From: a virus
Lineage: Duplodnaviria > Heunggongvirae > Uroviricota > Caudoviricetes
Strand: one strand, 5' to 3'
Virus record (IMG/VR): IMGVR_UViG_2695420658_000001
Length of the DNA: 5,729 bases
The position numbers and the translations under genes were made by a program. Positions 2,677-5,729 of the stretch are shown piece after piece (position 1 is the stretch's first letter; each line of letters starts with the position of its first letter). Below the pieces are notes generated by a model, which was given only the letters and a program-made list of their open reading frames with translations, searched no databases and was not told where the DNA came from.

Positions 2677-2706
2677 TTGACCAGACACATTGTCCGGGGC
2701 TATATT
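2677..2706 (+). promoter_or_regulatory. candidate late promoter (PR'-like): TTGACC, 18-nt spacer, TATATT
   Basis: -35 TTGACC at 2677-2682 and -10 TATATT at 2701-2706, beginning 5 nt after the quuD-like stop. A terminator lies about 75 nt downstream, as in lambdoid PR'/tR' arrangements. Confidence 0.4.
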
Positions 2707-2713
2707 CCTCACG

Positions 2714-2731
2714 CGCCAGCAAAATCTGGCG
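2714..2731 (+). promoter_or_regulatory. stem-loop in the predicted late leader (CGCCAG-caaaat-CTGGCG)
   Basis: Perfect 6-bp inverted repeat at about +1 to +20 of the predicted transcript, with no T-run after it. Possible pause or qut-associated RNA structure. Confidence 0.3.
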
Positions 2732-2767
2732 TCGGGATTGGAACCCCGGATAGAGACCGCGACAGAC

Positions 2768-2791
2768 ACACGCCGCGAGCGTGTTTTTTAT
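2768..2791 (+). terminator. rho-independent terminator (tR'-like)
   Basis: Stem ACACGC (2768-2773), loop cgcga, stem GCGTGT (2779-2784), then TTTTTATT. It is + strand specific; the reverse-strand hairpin has no T-tail. Confidence 0.55.
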
Positions 2792-2965
2792 TGTCGTATG
2801 CACGCGCACATCTGAATTATGGTGGGGCGCATGGGGGAGCTGAAAAGCTCGCCGGTCGGTTTCCCGGTAGTTCCAACCCTGTGCGTCTCACCACCCGATG
2901 ATTGGAACCTGACGGTGTTGACAGTTTCAGGTTTGCAGTTTACATTTCCCCGCGGTGCTCAAAAC
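2770..2965. repeat. 196-bp direct repeat, copy A (identical to 4535-4730)
   Basis: Perfect identity at a constant offset of 1765 nt. Copy A ends exactly at N-run 2. Confidence 0.95.
2918..2946 (+). promoter_or_regulatory. sigma70-type promoter TTGACA, 17-nt spacer, TACATT (inside repeat copy A)
   Basis: Consensus -35 TTGACA at 2918-2923, 17-nt spacer, -10 TACATT at 2941-2946. Confidence 0.45.
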
Positions 2966-3026
2966 NNNNNNNNNNNNNNNNNNNNNNNNNNNNNNNNNNN
3001 NNNNNNNNNNNNNNNNNNNNNNNNNN
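2966..3026. other. N-run (61 nt), unresolved sequence or scaffold gap
   Basis: Run of n directly after repeat copy A. Confidence 0.95.
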
Positions 3027-3048
3027 ACTGCGCCAGCGGAGAACTACG

Positions 3049-3648
3049 ATGGCGCATATACAACTGATCAAACAAACCTCTTCCGGATTACTTCTCCCGG
3101 CGACGCCGGAGAGTTGCGATTTTCTGCATCAAATCAAAACAGGTGAGTGGATACACGCAGACTTTAAGCGTGTGCGTAACTACGCATTCCACAAGCGTTT
3201 TTTCAAACTCCTGCAACTGGGTTTCGATTACTGGACTCCGGTCGGTGGGGCGATCACGCCTCGCGAACGAAAACTGGTGTCCGGTTTCGTTGATTACCTG
3301 TGTGAATCAGTAGGCCGGGAACATACGCCAGCTCTGAGCGAAGCCGCAGAGCAATATCTGAATACAGTTGCGACACGCAGAACCCGGGATACGGCATTGC
3401 TAAAGTCGTTTGAGGCTTTTCGCGAGTGGGTAACCATTCAGGCTGGATTTTACACCGAACATTTTTATCCGGACGGTAGCCGCGGGCGTCGGGCAAAATC
3501 CATCGCTTTTGCGAATATGGACGAAACCGAGTTTCAGCAGGTTTATAAATCTGTTCTGAATGTGCTGTGGAACTGGATTCTGTTCCGTAAATTTTCCTCT
3601 CCGGAACAAGTCGAAAATGTGGCCGCGCAGCTGCTGGAGTTTGCGTAA
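3049..3648 (+). CDS. hypothetical lambdoid nin-region protein (resembles the DUF1367 family)
   Basis: 199-aa ORF with GGAG at 3038-3041 seven nt upstream of ATG 3049. Its stop TAA 3646-3648 overlaps the next gene's ATG (TAATG). The frame is open into the N-run, so the start could lie further upstream. Family assignment is from memory only. Confidence 0.65.
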   Translation: MAHIQLIKQTSSGLLLPATPESCDFLHQIKTGEWIHADFKRVRNYAFHKRFFKLLQLGFDYWTPVGGAITPRERKLVSGFVDYLCESVGREHTPALSEAAEQYLNTVATRRTRDTALLKSFEAFREWVTIQAGFYTEHFYPDGSRGRRAKSIAFANMDETEFQQVYKSVLNVLWNWILFRKFSSPEQVENVAAQLLEFA

Positions 3649-3938
3649 TGGTGGATTTACGTAAAGCGGCGCGGGGGCAGATGTGCACCGTCAGAATTCC
3701 TGGCTACTGCAATCACGATCCGGAAACGTCTGTGCTGGCGCATTACCGACTGGCGGGAACGTGCGGAACAGCGATAAAGCCACACGATATGCAGGCAGCG
3801 ATTGCCTGTAGCTCGTGCCACGATTTAATCGACGGGCGGGTAAAAACCAGCGATTACACCAAAGAAGAATTACGCCTGATGCATGCAGAAGGTGTTTTTC
3901 GCACACAAGAAATCTGGAGAAAGGAGGGATATTTATGA
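3648..3938 (+). CDS. ybcO: YbcO-like protein (DUF1364, putative nuclease of lambdoid nin regions)
   Basis: 96-aa ORF 'MVDLRKAARGQMCTVRIPGYCNHDPETSVLAHYRLAGTCGTAIKPHD...IACSSCHDLIDGR' matches the E. coli DLP12 YbcO pattern (MADLRKAARG...VRIPG.CN..PETSVLAH.RL.G.CG...KP.D...IACS.CHD.ID.R). Translationally coupled on both sides. Confidence 0.8.
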   Translation: MVDLRKAARGQMCTVRIPGYCNHDPETSVLAHYRLAGTCGTAIKPHDMQAAIACSSCHDLIDGRVKTSDYTKEELRLMHAEGVFRTQEIWRKEGYL

Positions 3939-4489
3939 TTTACCCAACGAATACAGGAAAAAGCGGAGAACACCTTCGTCTCACCACGCTGGAAAGTGTC
4001 TGGATTCAGGGAAAACTACGTATGTGGGGGCGCTGGTCGTATATTGGTGGCGGTAAGACGGGGAATATGTTTAACCTGATGTTGACCTCTAAAAAGCTGA
4101 CAAAAACGGCAATTAACGAGGCGCTCCGGAGGATGAAAAAAGCAGGTCTGAACAAGTCTGAACTTGAGGCTTTTTTGCGGGATATGATTAACGGTAAGCA
4201 AAAGAGCTGGCTGGCGCATTGTACTGATGCAGAGGCGTTATGTATTGATCGGGTCATAAGTGAGGTGCTGGCAGAGCATCCAGGATTGATTAGCGTCCTT
4301 CGGCAACGGTATGAGGGGCGGGGGATGACCAAACGCAAAATGGCTGAACTGCTGAATGATGCACACCCGAAATGGAGTTTAAGAACCTGTGAAAGACGCA
4401 TTGAGCATTGGCTAAAGGTGGCAGAATTTATTTTGTACAAACCAATGGTTATGGCTTTTGGTATAGAGAAAAAAGTTATTGCTTTTTGA
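3935..4489 (+). CDS. putative late-gene regulator, candidate second Q-like antiterminator (184 aa); function uncertain
   Basis: Strong RBS AAGGAGGG at 3921-3928 and ATGA overlap with the ybcO-like stop. N-terminal 'LRMWGRWSYIGGG' echoes the 'ERWGAWAAN' motif of the QuuD-like protein. C-terminal 'VLRQRYEGRGMTKRKMAELLNDAHPKWSLRTCERRIEHWLK' resembles a sigma region-4 / HTH segment. It is followed by the same 196-bp promoter cassette as quuD. Confidence 0.55.
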   Translation: MIYPTNTGKSGEHLRLTTLESVWIQGKLRMWGRWSYIGGGKTGNMFNLMLTSKKLTKTAINEALRRMKKAGLNKSELEAFLRDMINGKQKSWLAHCTDAEALCIDRVISEVLAEHPGLISVLRQRYEGRGMTKRKMAELLNDAHPKWSLRTCERRIEHWLKVAEFILYKPMVMAFGIEKKVIAF

Positions 4490-4534
4490 CGTAAAAACTG
4501 CTTCAATTCTTGTACGCTTCGCAAAGCTGTACCN

Positions 4535-4730
4535 ACGCCGCGAGCGTGTTTTTTATTGTCGTATGCACGCGCACATCTGAATTATGGTGGGGCGCATGGG
4601 GGAGCTGAAAAGCTCGCCGGTCGGTTTCCCGGTAGTTCCAACCCTGTGCGTCTCACCACCCGATGATTGGAACCTGACGGTGTTGACAGTTTCAGGTTTG
4701 CAGTTTACATTTCCCCGCGGTGCTCAAAAC
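4535..4730. repeat. 196-bp direct repeat, copy B (identical to 2770-2965)
   Basis: Perfect identity. A single ambiguous base n at 4534 sits immediately upstream, inside what would be the terminator stem. Confidence 0.95.
4683..4711 (+). promoter_or_regulatory. sigma70-type promoter TTGACA, 17-nt spacer, TACATT (inside repeat copy B); candidate late promoter
   Basis: -35 TTGACA at 4683-4688 and -10 TACATT at 4706-4711. A terminator-like hairpin with T7 tail begins about 30 nt downstream of the predicted start site. Confidence 0.45.
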
Positions 4731-4746
4731 ACCTCGAAAGCGGTAT

Positions 4747-4776
4747 CCACACCCGATAGCCATGTGGTTTTTTTGT
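4747..4776 (+). terminator. candidate rho-independent terminator (weak stem, strong T-tract)
   Basis: CCACA (4747-4751) pairs with TGTGG (4763-4767) across an 11-nt loop, followed by seven T (4768-4774). The stem is short, so confidence is moderate to low. Confidence 0.4.
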
Positions 4777-4917
4777 GTCCAGAATTCTTGGTTTATGACC
4801 GGGTGTGCGGCTAATACAATACCAGCAATGGAAATACGCCCGCCGACTTTCGACGGTTTTGAGCGCCCGGTCACCCTCTCAAAAGGGGTAAATCAAAATA
4901 TTCGAAAGGACATGTCT

Positions 4918-5481
4918 ATGAATCGCACGTCTATTGAAAAACTCCCGTCACTTACGCATAACCATCTTCCTGTCATGACAACAGAGCTGCTGGCTGATTT
5001 GTACGGAACAGAGCGCCAGCGTTTGACAAACAATTTCAATCGAAACAAAGAACGGTTTATAGAAGGTAAACATTTTTTCCTGATAGAAGGTGATGCGTTA
5101 CGAGAGTTGAAGAACGAAAACTCTTTAAGAGTTTCTGTGAAAATTGCCCGTAACGTTCGCTCCCTCATCCTCTGGACAGAACGTGGCGCAGCCCGTCACG
5201 CCAAAATGCTCGAAACCGATCAGGCGTGGGAAGTGTTCGAAAAACTGGAAGACTGTTATTTCAACCAGAAACAGCCACCAGCGGCACAAAACACATCTAT
5301 CGAAAATGATGGATGCGCATTACTGAGCCACTTCGATAAACACGGTCAGGTTGAGTTCACGGAAAAGGTACCCGCCGATGCGATGGTATGTACTCTGGAA
5401 CGGTTTAAATTTTATCTGGAGCAACACGGGTGGATCGTTGCCCGTAAAGAGCAACTGGTGGAGCGGTTGATGCGGTTTTAA
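4918..5481 (+). CDS. ORF6N-domain (KilA-N / Bro-N-like DNA-binding fold) protein, antirepressor-like; C-terminal about 75 aa unassigned
   Basis: 187-aa ORF. 'PVMTTELLADLYGTERQRLTNNFNRNKERFIEGKHFFLIEGDALRELK...LWTERGAARHAKMLETDQAWEV' fits the ORF6N pattern (VM..DLA.LYG.E...L...RN.ERFPEDF.F.L...E...LK...WTE.G.A...L..D.A). AAGGA at 4906-4910 precedes ATG 4918; ATG 4912 is the alternative start. Confidence 0.75.
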   Translation: MNRTSIEKLPSLTHNHLPVMTTELLADLYGTERQRLTNNFNRNKERFIEGKHFFLIEGDALRELKNENSLRVSVKIARNVRSLILWTERGAARHAKMLETDQAWEVFEKLEDCYFNQKQPPAAQNTSIENDGCALLSHFDKHGQVEFTEKVPADAMVCTLERFKFYLEQHGWIVARKEQLVERLMRF

Positions 5482-5512
5482 AAATTTTTTCCGAAAACTT
5501 TACGATCGTAAA

Positions 5513-5549
5513 NNNNNNNNNNNNNNNNNNNNNNNNNNNNNNNNNNNNN
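5513..5549. other. N-run (37 nt), unresolved sequence or scaffold gap
   Basis: Run of n. The 24 nt directly after it (5550-5573) exactly repeat 5357-5380 from inside the ORF6N gene. Confidence 0.95.
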
Positions 5550-5562
5550 TCACGGAAAAGGT

Positions 5563-5588
5563 ACCCGCCGATGAGCGGGTTTTTTTAT
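5563..5588 (+). terminator. rho-independent terminator
   Basis: Stem ACCCGC (5563-5568), loop cgatga, stem GCGGGT (5575-5580), then TTTTTTAT. Confidence 0.6.
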
Positions 5589-5674: not shown

Positions 5675-5729
5675 GGCCCTTTAGCTCAGTTGGTCAGAGC
5701 GAGCGACTCATAATCGCCAGGTCGCTGGT
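5675..5729 (+). tRNA. ileZ: tRNA-Ile (anticodon CAU, lysidine-type, ileX/ileZ-like), 5' portion; truncated by window end
   Basis: GGCCCTTTAGCTCAGTTGGTCAGAGCGAGCGACTCATAATCGCCAGGTCGCTGGT closely parallels E. coli ileX as I recall it. D-arm AGCTCAGTTGGTCAGAGC; anticodon loop CTCATAA with CAT at 5709-5711. Met versus Ile2 cannot be fully settled from the anticodon alone. Confidence 0.8.

Follow-up and report, generated by a model that had tools for sequence, protein, structure and literature searches.

Genes and RNA elements of the window

The window, by which we mean the whole 5,729-nt stretch analysed here, is identical to a complete draft record, CXCK01000233.1 of assembly GCA_001260575.1, which is very probably an assembly of Shigella sonnei. 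It is interrupted by N at 1990-2077 (88 N), 2966-3026 (61 N), 4534 (a single n) and 5513-5549 (37 N). Every one of these interruptions has anomalous sequence at its borders, a point absent from an earlier, sequence-only reading that had drawn attention to a 196-nt direct repeat next to two of them. Since the other gaps are also flanked by repeated sequence, the window was split at the N-runs and handled as five contigs: C1 (1-1989), C2 (2078-2965), C3 (3027-4533), C4 (4535-5512) and C5 (5550-5729). To keep contig C4 apart from the antisense RNA of the same name, we write "contig C4" and "C4 RNA" throughout. The features of the window, with our reading of them, are as follows.

1-1989, + strand: contig C1, with a DnaB-like helicase gene (138-1529), an 85-aa ORF (1526-1783) and the 5' part of rusA (from 1783)
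1990-2077, no strand: N-run 1, 88 N, a spurious gap; contigs C1 and C2 overlap by 54 nt
2078-2965, + strand: contig C2, with the 3' part of rusA, the antiterminator gene Q1 (2286-2672), a promoter-like site (2677-2706), isrK/c4-a1b1 (2700-2789) and copy A of the repeat
2770-2965, + strand: copy A, in what is very probably the true left context; the last 20 nt of the isrK terminator, a C4-type RNA gene (2815-2898) and a promoter-like site (2918-2946)
2966-3026, no strand: N-run 2, 61 N, where contig C2 is very probably falsely joined to the foreign contig C3
3027-4533, + strand: contig C3, with genes for DUF1367 (3049-3648), YbcO/DUF1364 (3648-3938) and the DUF1133 Q-like protein "Q2" (3935-4489); very probably misplaced, from another prophage or prophages of the same genome
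4534, no strand: the lone n, very probably a placeholder at a false join of contigs C3 and C4; this chimeric junction is written GCTGTACC-x-ACGCCGCGAGCG and also GCTGTACC-x-ACGCCGCG
4535-4730, + strand: copy B, in what is very probably the true right context; very probably the same genomic bases as copy A
4731-5512, + strand: remainder of contig C4, with a hairpin and T-run (about 4756-4783), an sRNA-Xcc1-like element (4797-4880) and an ORF6N antirepressor-like gene (4918-5481)
5513-5562, no strand: N-run 3, 37 N, together with the 13 wrong bases that open contig C5 (5550-5562)
5563-5729, + strand: contig C5, with a terminator hairpin (5563-5580), a tRNA leader and a tRNA gene (5675-5729) cut by the end of the record

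Pfam searches with the called genes identified DnaB_C in the helicase, RusA, PF06530 in Q1 and PF10543 (ORF6N) in the antirepressor-like protein. The proteins encoded by contig C3 matched DUF1367, YbcO/DUF1364 and DUF1133. The third of these had been labelled Q2 from sequence alone, and the label is reasonable: the protein matches DUF1133 and, weakly, Phage_antitermQ.

The stretch following Q1 is rich in RNA elements. A full-length match to isrK (Rfam RF01394) lies at 2713-2789 (77.5 bits; gathering threshold, GA, 50). The promoter scan placed the site at 2677-2706 upstream of it, ending 7 nt before the match, and a terminator at 2768-2784, followed by a T-run, forms its 3' end. The c4-a1b1 family (RF03163) matches at 2700-2752 (50.1 bits, GA 46.7). 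The C4 antisense RNA (RF01695) was found in both copies of the repeat, at 2815-2898 and 4580-4663, each time over the entire model (1-87 of 87) and with 71.0 bits against a GA of 45. Each copy also holds a second promoter-like site, TTGACA-17-TACATT, at 2918-2946 and 4683-4711. We tried pairing between isrK and the C4 RNA region and claim none: the duplex energy was ordinary, no better than that of shuffled sequences (92 of 500 reached it), and the sole exact complementarity was 7 nt long (2738-2744 with 2870-2876).

Between the C4-type RNA and the start codon of the ORF6N gene, a match to sRNA-Xcc1 (RF02221) occupies 4797-4880 (77.4 bits, GA 53). The hairpin with a T-run at about 4756-4783 was spotted by eye; the terminator scan did not report it. 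At the right end of the window, Rfam detected a partial tRNA at 5675-5729 (34.6 bits) with the anticodon loop CTCATAA, hence a CAT anticodon, its 3' end being cut by the end of the record. ARAGORN found no tRNA in the window, as the gene is truncated in this way. The RefSeq annotation at the matching place is tRNA-Ile in an E. coli genome (strain RMDEC465, L002) and tRNA-Met in another (O157:H7 Z869, L003). At the left end, about 34 nt (1-34) match the end of an IS3-family element, reversed, which lies beside IS3-family transposase genes in two other loci (L016 and L017), and the left end of the record is therefore an IS boundary. The helicase gene is uninterrupted in the window; in three chromosome-scale S. 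sonnei assemblies (L004, L006 and L009) a 1.26-kb IS splits it at the place of 367-370 of the window (4-nt overlap).

The repeat ends exactly on gaps of the assembly

A repeat search and direct string comparison bore out the direct repeat: 2770-2965 and 4535-4730 are 100% identical over 196 nt at a spacing of 1765. An exact match of this length within 5.7 kb cannot be explained by chance. Its position with respect to the gaps was likewise as described, with the end of copy A (2965) abutting N-run 2 (from 2966) and the start of copy B (4535) directly following the n at 4534. The ends of the duplicated segment thus fall exactly on discontinuities of the assembly (2965|2966 and 4534|4535). The n had been taken for an ambiguous base. 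It very probably marks no ambiguous base call and is, rather, a placeholder at the false join of contigs C3 and C4.

The 196 nt begin within the terminator stem of isrK, and the left edge of copy B halves this stem. A full isrK precedes copy A only; copy B retains just its last 20 nt, as would be expected if the left edge of copy B were artificial.

The two other gaps are also bordered by duplicated bases. At gap 1, 1936-1989 equals 2078-2131 over 54 nt with one mismatch (A versus G at 2083, 6 nt from the end of contig C2), at which the finished genomes side with contig C1. On the finished locus L005, contig C1 ends at 5846 and contig C2 starts at 5793, so that gap 1 conceals a 54-nt overlap. 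Merging the two contigs makes rusA a single read-through gene of 123 aa. At gap 3, 5357-5380 equals 5550-5573 over 24 nt. L005 and the finished genomes carry 46 other bases at this gap, and the first 13 nt of contig C5 (5550-5562) are wrong: they copy 5357-5369, within the ORF6N gene, via a shared 11-mer, ACCCGCCGATG.

Finished chromosomes carry the 196 nt once

The exact Q1, Q2 and ORF6N proteins were found in finished chromosomes of 4.7-5.0 Mb. At least two of these chromosomes are published S. sonnei sequences, CP022672 (strain 866; PMC6128377) and CP014099 (FDAARGOS_90; PMC5447701). Q1 and ORF6N were found in chromosomes from 13 assemblies, and ORF6N lies 481 nt after the Q1 stop in all places shown. 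This spacing equals 293 + 187 + 1, which is exactly that of contigs C2 and C4 merged with one copy of the 196 nt.

Comparison of the five contigs with the finished loci by local blastn gave the same picture. Contigs C1, C2, C4 and C5 are collinear at a single locus in L004-L013 at 99.9-100% identity (C5 from its 14th base). Contig C1 (1989 nt) is 100% identical to L005, L007, L008, L010 and L011, and 99.95% identical in L012; contig C2 matches at 99.9% over 888 nt, contig C4 at 100% and contig C5 at 100% from its 14th base. On L005, contig C2 occupies 5793-6680 and contig C4 6485-7462, and their overlap is exactly the 196 nt. The single copy lies at 6485-6680 in L004-L012 and at 2686-2881 in L013, with flanks that are 99.9-100% identical. 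In the finished genomes contig C2 runs directly into the sequence of 4731 onward, and the base that truly precedes the 196 nt is a C (GACAGACAC|ACGCC). Moreover, all 37 contigs read with the identical ORF6N protein, including chromosomes from 8 assemblies, have RusA-Q1 directly upstream.

In finished chromosomes the segment between the copies lies at another locus

Contig C3 is 99.6% identical to L014-L016, L018 and L022, and 99.5% identical to L019. In CP104423.1 this locus is 1.06 Mb from that of Q1, the two positions being about 0.92 and 1.99 Mb, and in CP180008.1 it is 1.40 Mb from it, the two positions being about 0.89 and 2.29 Mb. At the C3 loci in finished chromosomes, the 6 kb to the left and the 6 kb to the right of C3 hold no sequence resembling the 196 nt.

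The exact DUF1367-protein allele of the window was otherwise found, by identical-protein look-up, only on short contigs. One of these, the Logan contig SRR8766729_578 (L173), is 1897 nt long and free of N, and all 1507 nt of C3 are present in it at 100% identity. The flanks there are ...CATTCT upstream and GCGAGGCGAATAG... into a tRNA leader downstream, and in this gap-free contig the 196 nt stand on neither side of C3. The same flanks occur in the sister record CXCN01000236.1 (L172). The base that truly follows C3 is a G (GTACC|GCGAGG...). In every readable locus (L014-L023, L002, L172, L173 and L175) the Q2 allele with its own 3' end leads into GCGAGGCGAATAG... and the tRNA leader.

At its true locus, 45 nt separate C3 from a downstream stretch of 155 nt that is identical to part of contig C5 (C5 26-180 is 100% identical to 6645-6799 of L014-L023). 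This tRNA-leader sequence of C5, which also matches L004-L013, is therefore common to the downstream side of both C3 and contig C4, and we infer that this is the reason why both were strung before C5.

Contig C3 itself is a mosaic of two DUF1367-YbcO-DUF1133 alleles from S. sonnei chromosomes, with 6 clustered sites (3222-3315) carrying the bases of the other allele. We considered a consensus blend of two collapsed copies, but the mosaic recurs at 100% in the independent, gap-free L173. It may thus be a real allele, a gene-conversion tract between prophages rather than a blend. The 6 differences from the nearest finished allele point to some history of its own for the lineage of the window.

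The chimeric junctions were not found elsewhere

Among 5426 complete E. coli genomes, none spans either chimeric junction (queries 4380-4850 and 2700-3300) and none has a place covering 80% of the window. The best E. coli match to the 196 nt with the right flank is only about 81-85% identical, and this set served for no more than gene order (L001-L003) and as a negative control. In strain EC12 the merged model of contigs C2 and C4 aligns collinearly as a single piece; many other complete E. coli genomes have it in two. The gene order in MEI7BO1-21 (L001) is helicase, RusA, Q1, ORF6N. In O157:H7 Z869 (L003) it is DUF1367, DUF1364, DUF1133, isrK/C4 RNA and ORF6N, with a Q gene that has a different 3' end, and in RMDEC465 (L002) DUF1367, DUF1364 and DUF1133 are followed after 45 nt by a tRNA leader matching contig C5.

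Metagenome and viral contigs were scanned for the first 40 nt of the repeat, which gave 137 loci. All 137 have one copy each, with an isrK-type left flank (24-30 of 30 positions identical); a left flank resembling the end of Q2 was found in none of them (at most 9 of 30). Thus, the left edge of copy B is nowhere a natural boundary. Identity over the full 196 of 196 nt was seen in 12 of the 137, and all 12 continue into the right flank of contig C4. Matches resembling the 196 nt occur once per locus in 155 of 160 loci, the other five having only a diverged second match. A genuine direct repeat should show both copies and both junctions in independent gap-free sequence. Neither junction occurs in the 5426 E. 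coli genomes, and in the 137 metagenome/viral loci and the S. sonnei loci every flank of the 196 nt is of the Q1/isrK type on the left and of the contig C4 type on the right, never C3. A 36-mer from the repeat was absent from the GTDB species representatives, probably because S. sonnei would not be a separate species representative there.

Another draft sequence, the viral record IMGVR_UViG_2693429623_000005 (L058), has a Rem-DUF1367-YbcO-Q2 block at 3568-5537 within the same Q1-ORF6N locus, but inside the ORF6N gene. A single N stands at 3568 and another at 5532, the sequences overlap by 10 nt at one of the junctions, and 38 nt of the host locus are duplicated. This interleaving resembles the artefact proposed for the window and suggests that such errors recur.

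Discussion

Comparison with finished genomes, which are those of relatives, that is of other isolates, leads us to conclude with high confidence that the 196-nt repeat is an artefact of scaffolding and gap filling in a short-read draft assembly. It is very probably not a real feature of the DNA. In the real order, the helicase gene, rusA, Q1, isrK, the C4-like RNA, the sRNA-Xcc1-like element, the ORF6N antirepressor gene and the tRNA would follow one another, and the 196 nt would occur a single time. Contigs C2 and C4 would enter the 196-nt stretch from opposite sides and overlap by exactly that length. The scaffolder would have put between them the 1.5-kb contig C3, whose own place is in a different lambdoid prophage at a distance of over 1 Mb. 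A likely cause is that read pairs tied both C3 and contig C4 to the same collapsed C5, as the tRNA leader is identical at the two loci. With C3 interposed, the overlap of C2 and C4 would have gone unmerged, and the same bases would have been written twice, padded with 61 N and with a single n.

Known behaviour of assembly software is in keeping with such a course. GapFiller extends a gap from its two edges and joins these on two conditions: an overlap of at least 10 nt between them, and an inserted length that departs from the estimate by no more than 50 nt (PMC3446322). Such a rule would leave unmerged overlaps such as these. In the widely used Velvet, SSPACE and GapFiller pipeline, the scaffolding and gap-filling tools are both called greedy, false joins being possible, and S. 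sonnei assemblies have a mean of 405 contigs (PMC5320598). This pipeline may well have made the record. Several marks of false joins of the GapFiller/SSPACE type are found here: the non-shared ends of the repeat lie on N, the repeat is single-copy in finished relatives and the intervening segment maps elsewhere. To these, the neighbouring gaps add an overlap of 54 nt that was left unmerged and an extension that went wrong at a shared 11-mer.

The deposited scaffold does have the order copy A, DUF1367-YbcO-Q2 block, copy B, and it could be taken at face value. The strain would then hold a real tandem, in which this block has recombined between two true 196-nt copies, so that the prophage would have its antiterminator gene and its C4-like RNA gene twice over. 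Lambdoid prophages are mosaic, a true two-copy repeat would also break contigs exactly at both ends of the 196 nt, and natural tandem isrK-C4 RNA-ORF6N modules are known (L046), though diverged (about 77% identity). Were the tandem real, two Q genes would read into one antirepressor control region, and the 196 nt would offer a substrate for excising the second antiterminator cassette. But copy B would then begin halfway through the terminator stem of isrK, at the very place of an n, and extension of C3 would have entered the 196 nt and merged with contig C4. Nor do the relatives agree: in the gap-free L173 the identical C3 allele is flanked by different sequence left and right, RusA-Q1 lies directly upstream in all 37 contigs read with the identical ORF6N protein (chromosomes from 8 assemblies included), and such junctions are absent from the 5426 E. 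coli genomes and the 137 metagenome/viral loci. We regard a real tandem as highly unlikely.

We find it hardly credible that the two copies are both true and lie in different prophages, one after Q1 and one after Q2, the scaffold having only strung the two loci together. S. sonnei does have many related prophages (PMC6128377), and a DUF1133-type Q gene followed by isrK, C4 RNA and ORF6N exists, for example in O157:H7 Z869 (L003) and in many IMG/VR contigs. In these natural cases, however, the 3' end of the Q gene differs, similarity to C3 stopping at about 1353 of 1507, and a full isrK precedes the C4 RNA region. They are 76-99% identical over at most 192 nt, and the exact full-length sequence never stands beside this Q2 allele. 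Where it is readable, the Q2 allele with its own 3' end always leads into GCGAGGCGAATAG... and the tRNA leader. It was on these flanks of the identical C3 allele that we rejected a real two-copy repeat in two prophages.

The sequence-only reading had named a very recent duplication, gene conversion and the collapse of a multi-copy sequence as possible origins of the perfect identity, and had allowed for an assembly artefact. It is the artefact that stands; none of the other three mechanisms fits. As regards collapse, the opposite is indicated, the sequence being single-copy in every related locus examined and written twice in the record. The recombination predicted between the copies, which would delete or swap the DUF1367-ybcO-Q2 block, is left without a substrate, because the repeat would be the overlap of contigs C2 and C4, duplicated by the wrongly interleaved C3, and because over 1 Mb separates the block from the Q1 locus in finished genomes.

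With contigs C2 and C4 merged, the locus resembles known regulatory regions of other phages. Its order, a Q-type antiterminator gene, isrK, a structured region and an antirepressor-like gene, matches that of the antQ-isrK-orf45-anrP locus of the Salmonella prophage Gifsy-1 (Hershko-Shalev et al. 2016; PMC4825925). In Gifsy-1, the operon mRNA arises when transcription reads through the isrK terminator, and IsrK acts in trans to activate translation of orf45 and anrP (PMC4825925). The antirepressor-like protein of the window differs in being an ORF6N-domain protein of a Shigella/E. coli-type prophage. A second parallel is the C4 antisense RNA of immI in P1 and P7 (RF01695, with its a1/b1 targets in RF03163): here, too, C4 RNA lies in the 196 nt, a1/b1 upstream of copy A and an antirepressor-like gene downstream. 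Unlike its counterpart in P1-type plasmid prophages, the element of the window belongs to a lambdoid prophage, where it directly follows gene Q, and neither a2/b2 targets nor an icd-like gene was identified in it. Phage Nil2 and Stx phages have related antirepressor regions that are 77-80% identical.

What a natural tandem of such modules looks like can be seen in OGEB01001352.1 (L046). As in the window, there is a pair of C4-type RNA genes that point the same way, about 1.6 kb from one another and separated by protein genes. The copies of L046, however, are complete modules, each with isrK, C4 RNA and its own ORF6N gene, about 77% identical and free of N, whereas those of the window match at 100% and both abut N, and isrK is missing from copy B. 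Within L046, the modules span 3397-5924, with isrK matches at 3397 and 4982, C4 RNA matches at 3498 and 5084 and a 136-aa ORF between the modules. Two matches per locus were also seen in L041, L057, L163 and L167.

The value of these observations lies first in quality control. The tandem antiterminators and the perfect recombination substrate of this record are unsupported by any related gap-free or finished sequence examined. Drafts of genomes rich in prophages and IS elements, such as those of S. sonnei, can interleave contigs of different prophages and duplicate contig ends, and exact repeats that end on N are suspect in scans for repeats, gene neighbourhoods or "recent duplications". The isrK/C4-type RNA switch before the antirepressor gene, just after gene Q, is real and has already been described.
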